The notes beneath the pieces were generated by a model. It saw only the letters and a program-made list of their open reading frames with translations, was not told the DNA's origin and did no database searches. DNA of 32,000 nucleotides from Halalkalibacterium halodurans (lineage in GTDB: Bacteria; Bacillota; Bacilli; Bacillales; Bacillaceae_D): the NCBI RefSeq assembly GCF_004376175.1, contig NZ_SNUY01000033.1:1-32000 (forward strand), written 5' to 3'. Shown here in pieces: positions 1,634 through 18,845 of this stretch (positions are counted from its first letter, which is position 1; every line of letters begins with the position of its first letter). The translations under genes were made by a program, and so were the position numbers.

Positions 1634-3614
1634 CGGTTGTTCCCTCCCTTATCATTGGAAAATAAAGGCTTATCGTCGTACCAATCCTTGCAGTAGTTCT
1701 AATCACAAGCCTGCCCCCATTTTCCTGTACATACTGGTTGGCAATCGCAAGTCCTAATCCTGTTCCTTTTGCCTTCGTCGTAAAAAACGGCTCAAGGGCT
1801 TGCTTCTGTTCTACTTCTGTCATGCCAACACCTTCATCCTTAACTTCAAGAATATACTCCTGTTTCAACTGGTACACGCGGATGGATAGCCGTAAGCCTT
1901 CTTCATTTTTCTCCTCCATCGCGTCCAAGCTATTAATCATTAAGTTCATAACGACTTGTTTCAGCTGGTTAGGATCCGCCTTTACGAGAAAGGGTCCTTC
2001 GATCGCTCCGTCCATCGTAAAACCCCGATTGGTCACGGTTCGATCAAAAAGCAGCATACACTCTCGGGCGAGCTCTGCGAGATCGATCATCTCCCTAGAA
2101 GGTTGCTTCGGTTTTGCATAATCAATGAGCCCTTCAATCAACGTGCTAACCCGCTCAATTTCTTGTGGAACATAAGTGGAAATCTCCTTTTGGAATCGTT
2201 CGTTACAAAGCTTTTTCGGGATTAACTCGACAAATGTTTTAATCGAGGTGAGGGGATTTCGCACTTCATGGGCGATCCCTGCCACCACACGGATGAGAGC
2301 ACGGCTTTTTTCTTGTTCGAATATTTGCATCCGCAGCTGCCGTTCTTCCGATATATCTTCAAACGTAACAATAGTTCCCGTTACGTTCCCTTCGACGTCA
2401 AATACTGGATATACATAATAGCGCAGGTAGATGGTGCGTCCATCAGCTCGCTCCCATTTGGTTTCCTCCCCTAAAAACCGTTGTTTTTCTGTAAATACCG
2501 TTTGTACTTTTCCGATTAATAGTTTTTTCAAAAGAGAAACTTTTCCAAAGTGAAGGCCAACGGTCTCTCTCGTAGTCCCTACAATCGCAGCCGCTTTCGG
2601 GTTAAAAGAAGTAATGATCCCTTCACGGTTAACCGTGGCAATCCCCCGCGGACTGCTATTTAAAATTTGGCGCTGAAACTCGTTGCTATTGCGTGTTTCC
2701 TCTATTTGTTTTTCTAACGTTCGATTCAACTCATGGAGGACAACGGTTTTTTTTGCTACTTCTTTTTGGAGCTGGCGATTCCAACGAATCCCTAGAAAAA
2801 ACAAAATGAGCGCAATAAGCAATAGAACCCCAATAATTTGAATCGCTAGCCACAGCCTCTCGGTGACAAGCTGTTCTCCGTTAAACCAATGTCGATAAAG
2901 AGTGCTATACGTCCCATCGCTTTTCAACTCTCGTAATCCGTCATTGATGTCCATTAAAAGTGGGTAGTTTTCTTTTTGTACGGCTATCGTATAATCGAGA
3001 GGGAGCAAATAGTTTCCAGCTACACGATACTTATGAGACAGACCTTTTTGCTCCAGCAAATAGTTCGCCGTCAACACACTCCCAATAAACGCCTCAGCTC
3101 GATCGTTTTGCAACAGCTCAATCCCTGCTTCTTGATGACTTGTCACATGATAACGAATGCCGCGAATATTTCGTAAAAACTCGTACTCTAACGTATCTGC
3201 TTGCAGGGCAGTTACTTTGTTCGCCAAGTCTGGTAATCCTTGAATCTCCTCATTATTGGTCGCCACAATTAAGCCGATCGATGTTCCGAGAATTGAATCT
3301 GTAAATTCAAGTCGGTTCGCGTACGACTCTTTAAAAGGCAGGGAAAGAAAAATGTCCACTTTCCCTTGATCAATTGCTTCTATAGCCTGTCGCTGAGTCA
3401 TTGGCACATAGTGAGCGTCCCATCCTTTCCTCTCAGCAACCTCAGAAAAGATATCAATAACAAACCCGTACGGTCCGTCACCTCCTTCCGCATGCAACGG
3501 GGGGAGATGAGGATCATAGGCCACCTTCACTTGCCGCTCAGCTAACGCGGGGGCGGGAAGCATCACGAACATAAAGACAAGCTTGATCATCAGGTAAAGC
3601 GGAAATCGTCTCAT
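1611..3614 (-). CDS. sensor histidine kinase with an N-terminal extracytoplasmic solute-binding (family 3 SBP-like) domain, TM helix, PAS, HisKA and HATPase domains
   Basis: Signal/TM start, ~230-aa SBP-like region, and TM helix LWLAIQIIGVLLLIALILFFLGI. PAS region, H-box AHEVRNPL, G1 DEGVGM and G2 GTGLGL. Confidence 0.92.
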   Translation of the reverse strand: MRRFPLYLMIKLVFMFVMLPAPALAERQVKVAYDPHLPPLHAEGGDGPYGFVIDIFSEVAERKGWDAHYVPMTQRQAIEAIDQGKVDIFLSLPFKESYANRLEFTDSILGTSIGLIVATNNEEIQGLPDLANKVTALQADTLEYEFLRNIRGIRYHVTSHQEAGIELLQNDRAEAFIGSVLTANYLLEQKGLSHKYRVAGNYLLPLDYTIAVQKENYPLLMDINDGLRELKSDGTYSTLYRHWFNGEQLVTERLWLAIQIIGVLLLIALILFFLGIRWNRQLQKEVAKKTVVLHELNRTLEKQIEETRNSNEFQRQILNSSPRGIATVNREGIITSFNPKAAAIVGTTRETVGLHFGKVSLLKKLLIGKVQTVFTEKQRFLGEETKWERADGRTIYLRYYVYPVFDVEGNVTGTIVTFEDISEERQLRMQIFEQEKSRALIRVVAGIAHEVRNPLTSIKTFVELIPKKLCNERFQKEISTYVPQEIERVSTLIEGLIDYAKPKQPSREMIDLAELARECMLLFDRTVTNRGFTMDGAIEGPFLVKADPNQLKQVVMNLMINSLDAMEEKNEEGLRLSIRVYQLKQEYILEVKDEGVGMTEVEQKQALEPFFTTKAKGTGLGLAIANQYVQENGGRLVIRTTARIGTTISLYFPMIREGTTDETNSHN

Positions 3615-3793: not shown

Positions 3794-4366
3794 CTATTGA
3801 TTCAGGTTAGCTTCGTGGCCGGGAAGCCTGTCGTTGATCATTTCCTCCATTGCCGATAAGGATGGTGGTTCTTCCTCGAGAACATCCGTAACAACAGGCT
3901 GAACAACGGCTTCATAATATGCTTGAAACGGAAAAAAATGTGTACCTTCTGAGTGAAGCTCCATCGCTCGCTCATAGATTTCGGGATAATGGGTTACTTG
4001 CCAGTGAATGCGCATAGTCCCTAGTTCATTCGTTTCTATCGATTCATAATATCCGTGACGAAATAGATTCGCCACTACTAACGGACGCTCGGTTGACAAA
4101 TAACGAGCAGTAGCGTCTTCCACTTCCCACGCTTTATCAGCAGTAAACAACACATCGCCTTCATATACTCGCTCGACAAAAGCCTCCGATGTGGCAATAA
4201 CGAGCAAAATCGTTACAACAGCGGCTAGAAAGCCTGCCATGTTTTCCTTCCGCTTATCCCCTTTCTTCAAAAACTTGCTCATGATGACACTTAGCAAAAA
4301 AGAAACCCCGATCGTAAACAAAATGCTTACCATCATAAAGAGCCATGTAGGCATAATGATCGTCAT
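3794..4366 (-). CDS. hypothetical membrane protein (two N-terminal TM helices plus a soluble domain)
   Basis: 190-aa ORF with its own terminator. It is divergent from the radical SAM gene. I recognise no family. Confidence 0.6.
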   Translation of the reverse strand: MTIIMPTWLFMMVSILFTIGVSFLLSVIMSKFLKKGDKRKENMAGFLAAVVTILLVIATSEAFVERVYEGDVLFTADKAWEVEDATARYLSTERPLVVANLFRHGYYESIETNELGTMRIHWQVTHYPEIYERAMELHSEGTHFFPFQAYYEAVVQPVVTDVLEEEPPSLSAMEEMINDRLPGHEANLNQ

Positions 4367-15001: not shown

Positions 15002-15295
15002 TTAAAAAAAGAGTAATTGGAGTTTATGCCCTTGCTCTTCAACTGTTTTTCCGTTTTTATACTCGTCTATAAATACTTGACGCTTGTTCGTAAGTGACAT
15101 AAATGCGTCTTGATCCCGTTTTTCTAGCGCCTGATCGATCGCTTCGTCAATTTCCTTTTTTCGATATGCAAAGATCGCATATTCTAAAATGGCTTGAGCG
15201 TACAACGATTGTAAAACGGACTCAGGACGCTTTTCGACTCTCAACTTTCGCAATTGACGTAGTGCCTGCCGCTCCATCGCAAAATGTTGGCTCAT
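15002..15295 (-). CDS. IDEAL-domain protein (YpiB/UPF0302-like C-terminal motif)
   Basis: Contains EIDEAIDQALEKRDQDAFMSLT, the signature that gives the IDEAL domain its name. The start chosen is the ATG at 15295, with AAAGGGG 9 nt upstream. The ORF is open up to a TTG at 15361 that has no Shine-Dalgarno. Confidence 0.6.
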   Translation of the reverse strand: MSQHFAMERQALRQLRKLRVEKRPESVLQSLYAQAILEYAIFAYRKKEIDEAIDQALEKRDQDAFMSLTNKRQVFIDEYKNGKTVEEQGHKLQLLFF

Positions 15296-15585
15296 CGTCC
15301 GCATCCCCTTTCTTATTAAATTTCCATTCTCCGATTGTTGCCGGTCATAGCGTTCATTCAACCAGATGAGTGCTAATTCTCTGGTTTACCTCTCTATTCC
15401 CCGTATAACTTAATCGAAAACCTTTTCATTCTTTCTTTTTTTCGGAAATTTAGTATCAATTGCGAGCACTTTTTATGCTCGTGACAGTAGGAGATGCTAA
15501 CTATGATCAATCATCATCTGCAAAAAGTTGCGTGAGGAACCGTACTATTTTAGTGAAAATTCATTACTAATCAATTTATCCTCTT

Positions 15586-16359
15586 TTAGGATGACTTTTC
15601 CTGCTGGGCTGCCTGTTCTCGCAATTGCGCTGCCCGCACTTCCCGCTGCTCTGTGTTCATTTTCGGACAGGAGTAACAATAGTTTCCTTCTTCCTTTAAA
15701 TAGCTTAAACAACAGGCAGGTTTGATTCGAACATGTTCGTTCGGGTCCGCCCAACTGCTGACATAACGAAACTTTACATCGAACGGATTCCGTTTTAAGC
15801 CAAATGCGTCTCCACTTAACTGCTTTAAAACCTCACCATCTGTCCGGATTCGCAGTTGGGTCGTTTGATCAGTTTCTTTTTTTAACCACGCACTTTGCTG
15901 TTGATAAAGGGGAAATGCTAGTAAACCGAAGGCATGGGTTTTCGGCAAATCAGCTACTTCTGCTATATTTTCAATGATCGGGGCGATTCGTTTAGCAAGT
16001 GCGGTAAAATATGAAGAAATGCTATTCGGTGCTAATGGTTCTAGTCTGGCTCGCCTGAGCTCAAAGCCTACTTCCTTGCCTTTAGAAAAAAACGCCAGTT
16101 CATCAAACAGAAGCCACTGGTTCTTAACAGACGCTAAATAGTAGTGGGCAGCAAATAGGAGGGAGAAGGGCTTGATCATGCTTGCGCCTCCCACTTTTAA
16201 CTCTTTCCCTTTCAAAATCCCATTCCGCCATACCACCATTTTCCGTGCGCCTTCCTTACCAACAAGTCCTGTTTCTGTGATCATTAGATCTACCTTTTCC
16301 ACAGGAAATGTATGGATGAAAAACATTTCCTTTAACTGGTGCTGAATCTTTTCATCCAT
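15586..16359 (-). CDS. FhuF/FchR-type ferric-siderophore-reductase-like [2Fe-2S] protein
   Basis: The C-terminus ACCLSYLKEEGNYCYSCPK is an exact C-C-x10-C-x2-C cluster motif of the FhuF family. The ~257-aa length is typical. The start ATG at 16359 (or TTG at 16365) abuts the stop of the upstream 73-aa ORF. Confidence 0.72.
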   Translation of the reverse strand: MDEKIQHQLKEMFFIHTFPVEKVDLMITETGLVGKEGARKMVVWRNGILKGKELKVGGASMIKPFSLLFAAHYYLASVKNQWLLFDELAFFSKGKEVGFELRRARLEPLAPNSISSYFTALAKRIAPIIENIAEVADLPKTHAFGLLAFPLYQQQSAWLKKETDQTTQLRIRTDGEVLKQLSGDAFGLKRNPFDVKFRYVSSWADPNEHVRIKPACCLSYLKEEGNYCYSCPKMNTEQREVRAAQLREQAAQQEKSS

Positions 16360-16365
16360 CGACAA

Positions 16366-16587
16366 TCACCCACCTTTTTTCATTCCATCTGTCCGTTTAA
16401 TAGACTGAATTTCTGTAAGAGCTAGATGATGTACACTTTTACCATCATCATCGTAGACAAGACATGCCCTTTTTTTTGAATCATAATGTAATATTCGGCC
16501 GATGACTTTTTGGTCACCTTCGAGCAAGGAGATGACAACAAGCTGATTTTCGTCAATCCAACGCTGTATAATTTCTAATTGTCTCAT
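16366..16587 (-). CDS. small protein resembling the C-terminal half of YolD-like proteins (tentative)
   Basis: 73 aa. The pattern ...VVISLLEGDQKVIGRILHYDSKKRACLVYDDDGKSVHHLALTEIQSI resembles the conserved C-terminal half of YolD-like proteins. The N-terminal W..LPEH part is absent. Homology is unverified. Confidence 0.45.
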   Translation of the reverse strand: MRQLEIIQRWIDENQLVVISLLEGDQKVIGRILHYDSKKRACLVYDDDGKSVHHLALTEIQSIKRTDGMKKGG

Positions 16588-16632
16588 CTTGACCTATCGC
16601 TCCGATCTTTCTTCTTGTTTTTTAAATGGTAC

Positions 16633-16661
16633 TTGTCATTGTAGCAGAAAAGGGGTACAAT
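16633..16661 (+). promoter_or_regulatory. sigma-A promoter for the 119-aa gene
   Basis: TTGTCA (16633-16638), a 17-nt spacer, then TACAAT (16656-16661). Confidence 0.65.
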
Positions 16662-16667
16662 AAACAA
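16638..16667 (-). promoter_or_regulatory. candidate sigma-A promoter for the YolD-like/FhuF-like operon
   Basis: The minus strand reads TTGTTT (16662-16667), an 18-nt spacer, then TACAAT (16638-16643). Each box overlaps a box of the opposite promoter. Confidence 0.45.
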
Positions 16668-16681
16668 CGAACACATGTTCC
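16668..16681. promoter_or_regulatory. LexA (DinR) SOS box / Cheo box
   Basis: CGAACACATGTTCC against the Bacillus consensus CGAAC-N4-GTTCG. Only the last base differs. It lies 6 nt downstream of the plus-strand -10 and abuts the minus-strand -35. Confidence 0.65.
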
Positions 16682-16706
16682 TATTTTGATTTTGGAGGTG
16701 ACTGGC

Positions 16707-17066
16707 ATGTTAAATGAAGTACAGCGAAACCTTGTGCAACGCTATATTATTTTAACACTAGTTCGCCAAGCACTAGAGAAAGATTTTAACACGTTACAGG
16801 CTTCCTCGCTCATCTGTCAGGAGTTGCTTCATTCGTTTCTAACGGAACGTATGCATGAAGTAGGTCGAGAAATCGGGGCTCTCCAGCGTGATTTACGTAA
16901 ACAGAAATTAACGATCAAAAAAGAAAAGAACGACGGATTTTTCACAAAATACAGTTACTACTTTAAAGGATATGAAGGGACTTTCTCATTGTTGAATGCC
17001 AGATTAAAACACGACACTCTCACCTATATGAAGCGACACCTTTTTAAACTGGAGACTAAACAGTAG
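16707..17066 (+). CDS. hypothetical 119-aa protein, probable SOS-regulated gene
   Basis: ATG at 16707 preceded by TGGAGGTGA. The upstream part of ORF 16626-17066 is occupied by the promoter and the LexA box. Predicted to be helical. I cannot confirm any family. Confidence 0.65.
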   Translation: MLNEVQRNLVQRYIILTLVRQALEKDFNTLQASSLICQELLHSFLTERMHEVGREIGALQRDLRKQKLTIKKEKNDGFFTKYSYYFKGYEGTFSLLNARLKHDTLTYMKRHLFKLETKQ

Positions 17067-17154
17067 AAGCTTGGCTTTCCCCTAAGTCTTAATTTAGCAG
17101 CGCTCGGTTATCTTATATTTTTTTGCTAGAAAATAACGTTCTTACTCAAAACAA

Positions 17155-17182
17155 AAACAAGGAAGAAAAGCCTTCCTTGTTT
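17155..17182. terminator. bidirectional rho-independent terminator (khtU and the 119-aa gene)
   Basis: 11-bp perfect stem AAACAAGGAAG / CTTCCTTGTTT with a 6-nt loop. T-rich tails on both strands. It starts 3 nt after the khtU stop. Confidence 0.8.
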
Positions 17183-17184
17183 GT

Positions 17185-18351
17185 TTAGCTAGGAACTTGC
17201 CATTTTTGCTCTGTCTGCTTCGTCTTAAACAATCGTTTGGTAATAGCAGGGGCAGACTGAAACAAAACGATTCCAAGCATTGCGGAAGCAAGGATAAAAA
17301 TACTCCCAAACGCTTGAACTGTACCTGTTGCTAAGGCTGCAATAATAATGGAAAACTCGCCCCGCTGTGTCAAAGACAGCCCTGCACGTAGAGCTACTTT
17401 TTTTGATAGACCGTACAGTTTACCACCAACCATTCCAACAATAATTTTTCCAACAATGGACCAAACAAGCAAGGTTATTAATAATCCAATCATCGGAACC
17501 CCTTCAGAAAAGGAAATGGTTGTCCCGAAGTAGAGAAAAAAGATTGGGAGGGTTAAGTCACGAAGCGGGACAACGAGACCTTCCAGCTGGTGGGATCGCT
17601 TCACTTCTGCCAGCATAATTCCTGCTAAAAACGCACCCAACACTTCTGACAATTCTAAGTAAAGGGCAAACCCTCCATAGGCTATCGCCACCCCCACGAC
17701 AAAAAGAATAAACACATCACTGGATAAATGGCGATCAAAAAAAGGTCCCAACTTGCTAAATAAATATCTGCCTAACACAATAGCCACAATCGTCAAAAGA
17801 AAGACTTTACCCATTAACAATGCCAAAGCCCCACCAGTAATTTCTTCTCCTGCCGTTAGCCCGACTAAAACAGCTACAAGTACAGGAGCAACCAAATCTT
17901 CAAAAATCAGCAATCCGAGAATAAACTCTGATTCAGGGTTCGCCATCCGTTTAGAGCTTTCGAGCATTTTCGCTGTAATCGAAGAGCTAGTAGCATAAAC
18001 AACCCCACCAATAAGAAGAGATGAGATGAGATCCAGCCCGAAAAGTAGGCAAATTCCTGTTGCAATTCCGAAGTTCAAAACGACATCGATCGATCCTGCT
18101 GGAGTCACTTTTTTCGCAACCCCAACAAGTTGCTTTAAAGGAAATTCCATGCCGAGCATAAAAAATAACAGAACGATTCCTACTTCACCTACAAAGTGTA
18201 CCATGTGAGAATCTGTCAATAGTCCGCTGACAGCAATCCCGAGCAATATGTAAACGATCACCTCTGGTATTTTCCATTTTGCTCCTAGAAAACCTGTCAC
18301 AAACAAAAGTAAGAGTACGAGGCCAGCACCAAGTAATTCTGGAATATCCAA
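17185..18351 (-). CDS. khtU: K+/H+ antiporter, CPA2 family (KhtU/YhaU-like)
   Basis: 388-aa polytopic membrane protein with a Kef-type antiporter layout. TTG start behind GGGGAGG. Directly downstream of khtT, as in B. subtilis khtSTU. Confidence 0.88.
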   Translation of the reverse strand: MDIPELLGAGLVLLLLFVTGFLGAKWKIPEVIVYILLGIAVSGLLTDSHMVHFVGEVGIVLLFFMLGMEFPLKQLVGVAKKVTPAGSIDVVLNFGIATGICLLFGLDLISSLLIGGVVYATSSSITAKMLESSKRMANPESEFILGLLIFEDLVAPVLVAVLVGLTAGEEITGGALALLMGKVFLLTIVAIVLGRYLFSKLGPFFDRHLSSDVFILFVVGVAIAYGGFALYLELSEVLGAFLAGIMLAEVKRSHQLEGLVVPLRDLTLPIFFLYFGTTISFSEGVPMIGLLITLLVWSIVGKIIVGMVGGKLYGLSKKVALRAGLSLTQRGEFSIIIAALATGTVQAFGSIFILASAMLGIVLFQSAPAITKRLFKTKQTEQKWQVPS

Positions 18352-18356
18352 TAGAC

Positions 18357-18845
18357 TTACGCCTCCCCTTCACAGAGACGCTCGAACCGATCAATTTGTT
18401 CTTGTTTTCCTACTGCAATTAAAACATCCCCTTGATAAAGAACTTCGTCAACTTCTGGGCTCGCCTGTACCTCACCCTCTCGTACAATTCCAATAACTGA
18501 TACACCCGTTTTCTTACGAATGTTCGCCTCTCCTATCGTCTTATTGACAATGGGGGAATTCTTTTTCAATTCAATCCATTCCATCACCATTTTGTTTTTA
18601 ATCATCTTCATTTTGTCATTATCCACCGGCTGAAACACAGCCCCAAGTAACTGTGCCCCTAACTCTCGTGTTTCATCAGCTGTTAAATTGATGGCAAAAT
18701 CTGGTTCATCGTTGTCTTCATGGGCAAAAAAATAGAGCTCTCGCTTACCAGTATGATGAATAATGAGAACAATCATATTTCTTTGTGCTGTCATAAATGT
18801 CATTTTCTTACCGATTCCCGGTAAGTCAGCCATTTTCACTTCCAT
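18357..18845 (-). CDS. khtT: antiporter regulatory subunit KhtT (N-terminal domain plus RCK_C/TrkA-C)
   Basis: The DLPGIGKK N-terminus and the C-terminal RCK_C segment (IGEANIRKKTGVSVIGIVREGE...GDVLIAVG) are collinear with B. subtilis KhtT (YhaT) as I remember it. Confidence 0.85.
   Translation of the reverse strand: MEVKMADLPGIGKKMTFMTAQRNMIVLIIHHTGKRELYFFAHEDNDEPDFAINLTADETRELGAQLLGAVFQPVDNDKMKMIKNKMVMEWIELKKNSPIVNKTIGEANIRKKTGVSVIGIVREGEVQASPEVDEVLYQGDVLIAVGKQEQIDRFERLCEGEA

Follow-up and report, generated by a model that had tools for sequence, protein, structure and literature searches.

A predicted LexA operator in the promoter of a YhjD-family gene of Halalkalibacterium halodurans

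Introduction

The canonical Cheo/SOS boxes of the Bacillota, such as those of recA, lexA and uvrBA, are 14-bp imperfect palindromes that overlap either the transcription start or the spacer of the promoter. Multiple boxes have been reported for lexA and yneA. In Escherichia coli, uvrA and ssb are transcribed divergently and their promoters share a single LexA box. The refined LexA consensus of Gram-positive bacteria, as quoted in PMC2248561, is CGAACRNRYGTTYC.

In Bacillus subtilis, the curated regulatory network lists yhjD (BSU10470), yhjE and sipV as genes repressed by lexA (supplement of PMC4670728). The divergent genes yhjC and yhjB were also considered here as LexA targets. This is not borne out by the same curated table, in which both are placed under the control of CodY and ComK and not under that of LexA (supplement of PMC4670728).

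The YhjD family has also been connected with translesion synthesis. Arm-bearing YhjD proteins have been proposed as small subunits of a mutasome formed by the translesion polymerase (PolY) of the YqjW/UvrX type (PMC12926913, published in 2026). In Cohnella and Paenibacillus, YhjD homologs stand in for YolD next to a YqjW-type PolY, and these proteins have only the N-terminal arm in common with YolD/YqjX (PMC12926913).

The present analysis deals with a stretch of 32,000 nucleotides from the alkaliphile Halalkalibacterium halodurans, once classed in Bacillus, hereafter called the window. A gene of 119 codons and a two-gene operon are divergently transcribed from an intergenic region of 119 bp (positions 16588-16706). 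The original prediction for this region placed one LexA box within two interlocked promoters and proposed that it could silence both transcription units.

A stand-alone YhjD-domain gene

The plus-strand gene (16707-17066) codes for a 119-aa protein of the YhjD family (PF26325), constituted by a stand-alone YhjD domain without the N-terminal YolD-like arm. PF26325 is precomputed for proteins with 95-97% identity to that of the window and for all the remoter homologs found. No match was obtained for the 119-aa protein or 31 relatives in scans against NCBIfam and against a local copy of Pfam from which the PF26325 model is absent. An exhaustive HMMER search recovered 34 relatives, nearly all of them with about 115-130 residues and belonging to Bacillales of alkaline or saline habit. 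Alignment A3 was built with 31 of these 34, and the window protein and 30 aligned relatives all begin at the YhjD domain. When the A3 profile was compared by hhalign with residues 45-156 of the Cohnella abietis YhjD, a probability of 99% and an E-value of 2.5e-18 were obtained. These sequence comparisons place the 119-aa gene in the YhjD family, and its relation to B. subtilis yhjD is drawn through the Pfam family and the Cohnella YhjD homolog.

The AlphaFold model of the 119-aa protein (pLDDT 94) is made up of a pair of long helices, a sheet of three strands and a helix at the C terminus. Neither the fold search nor the sequence search against the PDB detected a significant relative of this protein. 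Searches with YhjD by tblastn found nothing in phages and one match in plasmids.

The window gene and B. subtilis yhjD share the PF26325 family and a small product (about 120 aa), and the B. subtilis gene is likewise divergent from a small gene whose unit, yhjCB, is not listed under LexA (PMC4670728). However, B. subtilis yhjD is grouped with yhjE and sipV, whereas the window gene is monocistronic and convergent with a CPA2 antiporter gene, and its divergent unit is an operon formed by a 73-aa gene and an FhuF-like gene. The C-terminal YhjD domain is also common to the window protein and to those of Cohnella abietis (BBI32856) and Paenibacillus beijingensis (AJY76488) (PMC12926913). In the Paenibacillaceae proteins this domain is preceded by an additional arm of some 44 residues (…RWxSxxMLxEH…), a counterpart by homology of the arm that YolD/YqjX inserts into PolY, and their genes adjoin a polymerase gene. 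In contrast, the window protein is armless and its gene has as neighbours the 73-aa/FhuF-like operon and the CPA2 antiporter gene, with no Y-family polymerase gene adjacent to it. Nor was a polymerase gene found beside yhjD in any of the YhjD loci fetched from other organisms. The fusion of the YhjD domain to the polymerase-binding YolD arm in Paenibacillaceae points to a role of YhjD around translesion synthesis.

This family assignment bears on two statements of the original prediction, namely that none of the three genes has a known DNA-repair role and that the site may belong to an undescribed branch of the SOS response. The former does not hold for the 119-aa gene, since in this family B. 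subtilis yhjD is curated as repressed by LexA (PMC4670728) and arm-bearing YhjD proteins are proposed polymerase subunits (PMC12926913). The latter is not supported either: the connection between LexA and yhjD was already known in B. subtilis (PMC4670728), and the site in the window is therefore an expected SOS operator and not a sign of a new SOS branch.

The start of the gene is annotated in two ways. Some gene callers (JGI, Logan) give the yhjD homolog of the window as a 146-aa ORF starting at 16626 (16626-17066), while NCBI gives 119 aa. The longer ORF would span both the promoter and the box and has no ribosome-binding site. The start at 16707 is favoured because a ribosome-binding site (GGAGGTG, 16694-16700, plus strand) lies 6 nt ahead of the ATG at 16707 and because homologs start at the aligned position. 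Between the convergent yhjD-family and CPA2 antiporter genes, the scanner reports a hairpin (17155-17182) with a 12-bp stem and a T run on the minus strand, and what follows it on the plus strand is only GTTTAGC. This hairpin is a minus-strand terminator, and it may be bidirectional.

The predicted LexA box and the yhjD promoter

The predicted operator CGAACACATGTTCC occupies positions 16668-16681 and would correspond to about +1 to +14 of the yhjD transcript. It agrees with the refined consensus CGAACRNRYGTTYC at all 14 positions. In the 32-kb window this consensus is matched once, by CGAACACATGTTCC itself, against 0.02 matches expected, and any match appeared in only 2 of 100 shuffled sequences. 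Compared with the simple palindrome CGAAC-N4-GTTCG the agreement is 13 of 14 positions. When one mismatch to this palindrome is allowed, the window contains one match and 1.14 are expected, so the site is not significant on the loose pattern alone. The original prediction had regarded the last base of the site as a deviation; against the refined consensus it is no deviation at all.

The box is accompanied by a good promoter on the plus strand. Its -35 hexamer is TTGTCA (16633-16638) and its -10 hexamer is TACAAT (16656-16661), both read directly from the sequence and listed by the promoter scanner, which gives 10 of 12 consensus matches with a 17-nt spacer. The box begins 6 nt past the -10 hexamer and ends 12 nt before the ribosome-binding site, and the gene starts 25 nt past the box. 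The original prediction is right on this geometry. By overlapping the promoter and the predicted transcription start of the yhjD-family gene, the box would occupy a classic operator position. It resembles in this the canonical boxes of recA, lexA and uvrBA, with which it also shares its 14-bp imperfect palindrome and its full match to CGAACRNRYGTTYC; unlike lexA and yneA, the window gene has a single box.

The box is identical in three other H. halodurans assemblies. The intergenic region of the close strains (L006-L008) is 99% identical and hence uninformative. No RNA family of Rfam was matched by the intergenic region.

A weak second box-like sequence, TTAACACTAGTTCG, which has two mismatches, lies at 16752-16765, 45 nt inside the yhjD coding region. 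One of the Anaerobacillus-type loci (L016) contains a similar sequence at +51. Coding constraint is the likely cause of both, since each of them encodes a conserved LTLVR/LTLAR peptide.

Conservation of the box upstream of yhjD homologs

The upstream regions of 13 YhjD-family genes from about nine genera of Bacillales were read. A Cheo-type box is present in the promoters of 11 of these 13 genes, 10 of them being convincing, and it lies either just past the -10 hexamer or inside the -35/-10 spacer, irrespective of the neighbouring genes. The proteins of the box-bearing homologs are 21-43% identical and their gene neighbourhoods differ, the neighbours including a peptidyl-prolyl isomerase gene, an IDEAL-domain gene, an RNA ligase gene and a small gene coding for a LexA DNA-binding domain. 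The parts conserved upstream are the -10 hexamer, the box and the ribosome-binding site, the remaining sequence being unconserved.

Eight homologous loci have a common layout in which the box follows the -10 hexamer at a distance of 1-8 nt. In the loci with the box after the -10, this hexamer is of the TAAAAT type. Boxes at this position are CGAACATACGTTCT in Halalkalibacterium ligniniphilum (L014; 43% identical protein) and in Paenalkalicoccus suaedae (L023), CGAACATA[GA]GTTCT in three loci of the Anaerobacillus type (L009, L011 and L016), and AGAACAAACGTTCT in two of the Salisediminibacterium type (L013 and L018). Boxes in the -35/-10 spacer are GGAACGTATATTCG in Marinococcus (L020), AGAACACTTGTTCT on a plasmid of Sutcliffiella horikoshii (L024) and CGAACATATATTCT in the mobile-element copy of Bacillus sp. 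FJAT-45350 (L012). Paenibacillus J31TS4 (L021) has only a weak box, and in Aliibacillus (L022) no box was found within 80 bp upstream of yhjD.

Sites with up to two mismatches number 12 in 804 upstream positions and 33 among 71,531 positions in other parts of these loci, which represents a 32-fold enrichment. The background chance of such a site is 0.03 per 80-bp upstream window, and sites were observed in 11 of 12 loci; these loci are not phylogenetically independent (they form about 9-11 groups), and an exact P-value should not be over-read. At the level of sequence, the enrichment at yhjD promoters is unambiguous. The recurrence of the box in the upstream regions of homologous genes from other genera, a check that the original prediction had asked for, can be taken, for a prediction made from sequence, as the decisive evidence for a LexA (Cheo) box. 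The distribution indicates that the box is a property of yhjD, since it follows this gene rather than the 73-aa or the FhuF-like genes.

The locus of Bacillus sp. FJAT-45350 (NISU01000001.1; L012, positions 2655-3348) carries a second YhjD paralog. The region around it resembles a mobile element or prophage and also contains Replic_Relax, HTH_3, SocA_Panacea, holin and amidase genes. This paralog is divergent from a gene whose 76-aa product has a LexA DNA-binding domain and nothing else. The intergenic region of 115 bp holds two back-to-back promoters, each with a box in its spacer (CGAACATACATTCT and CGAACATATATTCT), and the right half of both boxes is ATTC. The arrangement resembles a switch of the immunity type, with the LexA DNA-binding domain acting as a mini-repressor.

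The divergent operon and its putative promoter

The first gene of the divergent unit (16366-16587, minus strand) codes for a 73-aa protein whose homologs were found in Halalkalibacterium only. The original prediction called this protein YolD-like, a description that the comparisons do not sustain: it has no match to the Pfam YolD family (PF08863) at E <= 0.1, BLASTP gave no alignment with B. subtilis YolD at E <= 100, and its sequence lacks the N-terminal arm motif (RGxIKWxxMMLPEH). Weak sub-threshold matches to Hfq_1 are the only ones obtained. Its single-sequence model (pLDDT 71) is all-beta with six strands. In a fold search against the PDB this model had no significant match, the weak ones being Tudor/SH3-like (E > 0.1), and the modelled fold is possibly a barrel of the SH3/Tudor/Sm-like type. 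The C-terminal domain of YolD is described as SH3-like (supplement of PMC12926913), and a distant likeness of the 73-aa protein to YolD at the level of the predicted fold is possible.

The second gene (15586-16365, minus strand) has its start codon immediately after the stop codon of the 73-aa gene and codes for a 259-aa FhuF-like, putative (2Fe-2S) protein. Its relatives are named (2Fe-2S)-binding protein or FhuF in the sources, and an entry from H. halodurans shares 96% identity with it. The C-terminal region contains a CC-x10-C-x2-C motif whose cysteines are invariant in four relatives (alignment A1). Scores against FhuF_C (16.5 bits, cut-off 20.5) and TIGR03950 (18.9 bits, cut-off 137.9) are below threshold, as are all its model matches, and the protein can be called FhuF-like, putatively, only through this C-terminal motif.

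The best candidate for a promoter of this operon within the 119-bp intergenic region is a putative TTGTTT-18-TGnTACAAT on the minus strand. Its -35 hexamer TTGTTT (16662-16667), with 3 of 6 consensus matches, directly abuts the box. The extended -10 element TGCTACAAT (16638-16646) contains TACAAT at 16643-16638 and TG at 16646-16645. The promoter as a whole has an 18-nt spacer and 8 of 12 matches plus the TG, and it is omitted by the scanner because its -35 has only 3 of 6. It is present as the original prediction had described, with its -35 against the box. The two promoters fill the same 35 bp on opposite strands (16633-16667), and the predicted starts, near 16668 for the plus strand and near 16631 for the minus strand, are about 37 bp apart. 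The statement that each -10 overlaps the -35 of the other is a loose one; the hexamers do meet, either by abutting or by having a single base (16638) in common. Likewise, the inverted repeat TTGTCATTGTA / TACAATAAACAA from which the two promoters were said to be built is real, but it includes one mismatch and one indel and was not reported by the repeat finder.

In H. ligniniphilum (L014), a 71-aa ortholog of the 73-aa protein is encoded 337 bp from yhjD, with its own promoter (11 of 12 matches) about 240 bp from the box of that locus and no full box of its own. At L014:2680-2700 (minus strand), the TTTACA-16-TATAAT promoter of this ortholog is followed, 7 nt on, by a lone CGAAC half-site (CGAACTTTAACAAC), which is probably there by chance. 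Five Halalkalibacter/Alkalihalobacillus loci with FhuF-like orthologs, in which neither the 73-aa gene nor yhjD is present, were used as a negative control, and GAAC-N4-GTTC is absent from the whole 8.7 kb of these loci. With up to two mismatches in the 150 bp upstream, one additional site is found, CGAATTCATGTTTG at -55 in L004. The absence of the box from these 73-aa and FhuF-like orthologs means that LexA control would not be a conserved property of either gene.

Another sequence, AAATGTGTGCG(C/A)ATTCAT, is conserved about 50-90 bp upstream of the FhuF-like gene in four Halalkalibacter/Alkalihalobacillus genomes (L001-L004). It lies at about 3915-3950 of the locus, is not of the Cheo type and contains the CGAATTCATGTTTG of L004. 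It may be the site of another regulator.

The gene order of the region has parallels elsewhere. An IDEAL-domain gene, yhjD and a TrkA-type gene are adjacent in H. ligniniphilum (L014), Marinococcus (L020) and Aliibacillus (L022). In Halalkalibacter, the FhuF-like gene pairs with an IDEAL-domain gene, with no yhjD nearby. The window (15002-18845) combines both arrangements, which suggests that an insertion between the IDEAL-domain gene and yhjD brought in the 73-aa and FhuF-like genes. The IDEAL-domain ORF of the window (15002-15361, minus strand) has 119 aa counted from a TTG, but is called with 97 or 115 aa in other assemblies of this species. Its first 19 residues match by tblastn in a different frame in those strains, which suggests that the start is mis-called or that there is an indel close to the 5' end.

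Mechanism and alternative readings

The motif is likely to be a functional LexA operator for the sigma-A promoter of the monocistronic yhjD-family gene, which LexA cleavage would derepress. In the undamaged cell, a LexA dimer would sit on 16668-16681, at about +1 to +14 and right after the -10 hexamer, and would bar RNA polymerase from forming a productive complex at the yhjD promoter. Upon DNA damage, RecA-stimulated self-cleavage of LexA would free the near-consensus promoter, and the 119-aa YhjD-domain protein would be made. We infer that LexA binds the site, that damage induces the 119-aa gene and that transcription starts where the promoter predicts. Any effect on the divergent 73-aa/FhuF-like operon would be a secondary result of the tight packing of promoters in H. 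halodurans.

It appears very improbable that the palindrome arose by chance, or that it serves a different regulator, and that LexA makes no use of it. The loose pattern does yield one match per 32 kb, just as chance gives, and the small proteins with only a LexA DNA-binding domain that are encoded beside yhjD paralogs on mobile elements could recognise similar boxes. However, an exact match to CGAACRNRYGTTYC was expected only 0.02 times in the window, the box is kept at the same promoter position across about nine genera whose flanking sequences are not conserved, and curation places the B. subtilis ortholog among the targets of LexA (PMC4670728). CGAACACATGTTCC is very probably a real LexA binding site.

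The divergent operon raises a separate question, namely whether a single LexA dimer represses both promoters, so that the 73-aa/FhuF-like operon would also be SOS-induced, as the original prediction had proposed. The E. coli uvrA/ssb pair makes such dual control a known arrangement, with one operator between back-to-back promoters as in the window, although its LexA motif and its phylum are different and comparison gives no support to a dependence of the second promoter of the window on the box. With an intergenic region of only 119 bp and a terminator upstream on the minus strand, the promoter of the operon must be near the box, and a candidate, TTGTTT-18-TGnTACAAT, is indeed present with its -35 against it. 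The box abuts this -35 without covering it, but the footprint expected for LexA, of 18-20 bp (PMC4551915), would reach 2-3 bp into the hexamer. On the other side, the box lies at about -36 to -49 of the minus-strand promoter, a poor position for repression and especially so for an extended -10 promoter, which is less dependent on its -35. Comparison also argues against it: in H. ligniniphilum the 71-aa ortholog is served by a separate promoter, some 240 bp away from the box, and lacks a full box, the five FhuF-like loci of Halalkalibacter/Alkalihalobacillus have no GAAC-N4-GTTC, and yhjC/yhjB, divergent from yhjD in B. subtilis, are listed under CodY and ComK and not under LexA (PMC4670728). 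Where two divergent promoters are both clearly box-controlled, as in the mobile element of FJAT-45350, each has its own spacer box. The geometry of the window permits silencing of both units by one dimer, and the comparison gives it no support; we regard it as rather unlikely.

The same packing could work in the opposite sense. Only one polymerase would fit on the 35 bp that both promoters occupy on opposite strands, and LexA would block the strong plus-strand promoter while the weaker minus-strand one stays usable. Once freed by the SOS response, the yhjD promoter would outcompete its neighbour, and expression of the 73-aa/FhuF-like operon would fall as that of yhjD rises. Such interference agrees with the plus-strand promoter being nearer the consensus (10 of 12 matches, compared with 8 of 12 plus TG) and with a box that is downstream of the plus-strand promoter and upstream of the minus-strand one. 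It is nevertheless an improbable reading, drawn from the geometry, and polymerase contacts upstream of the minus-strand -35 may still be obstructed by LexA when it is bound. A further idea, speculative and rather doubtful, is that in H. halodurans the insertion of the operon against the yhjD promoter produced two fully interlocked promoters with one LexA box, by which a putative iron-sulfur/ferric-reductase-like protein would have become newly coupled to the SOS response, positively or inversely. If true, the SOS coupling of this putative iron-sulfur protein would be a lineage-specific rewiring achieved purely by promoter packing.

Significance for the YhjD family

Under the reading preferred here, that of an operator for the yhjD-family gene, what appeared to be a new SOS branch becomes an expected one, and an alkaliphile gains a well-supported LexA target. 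The interlocked promoters of H. halodurans would make a compact natural system in which to weigh the sharing of an operator against competition between promoters. Among the stand-alone YhjD-domain genes of many Bacillales, on chromosomes, on a plasmid and on a mobile element, the presence of a promoter LexA box is a conserved trait. Taken with the fusion to the YolD arm in Paenibacillaceae, this conservation strengthens the case for a function of the YhjD fold in the DNA-damage response. Since no solved structure resembles YhjD and its model is a confident one (pLDDT 94), YhjD would be a reasonable candidate for functional study.
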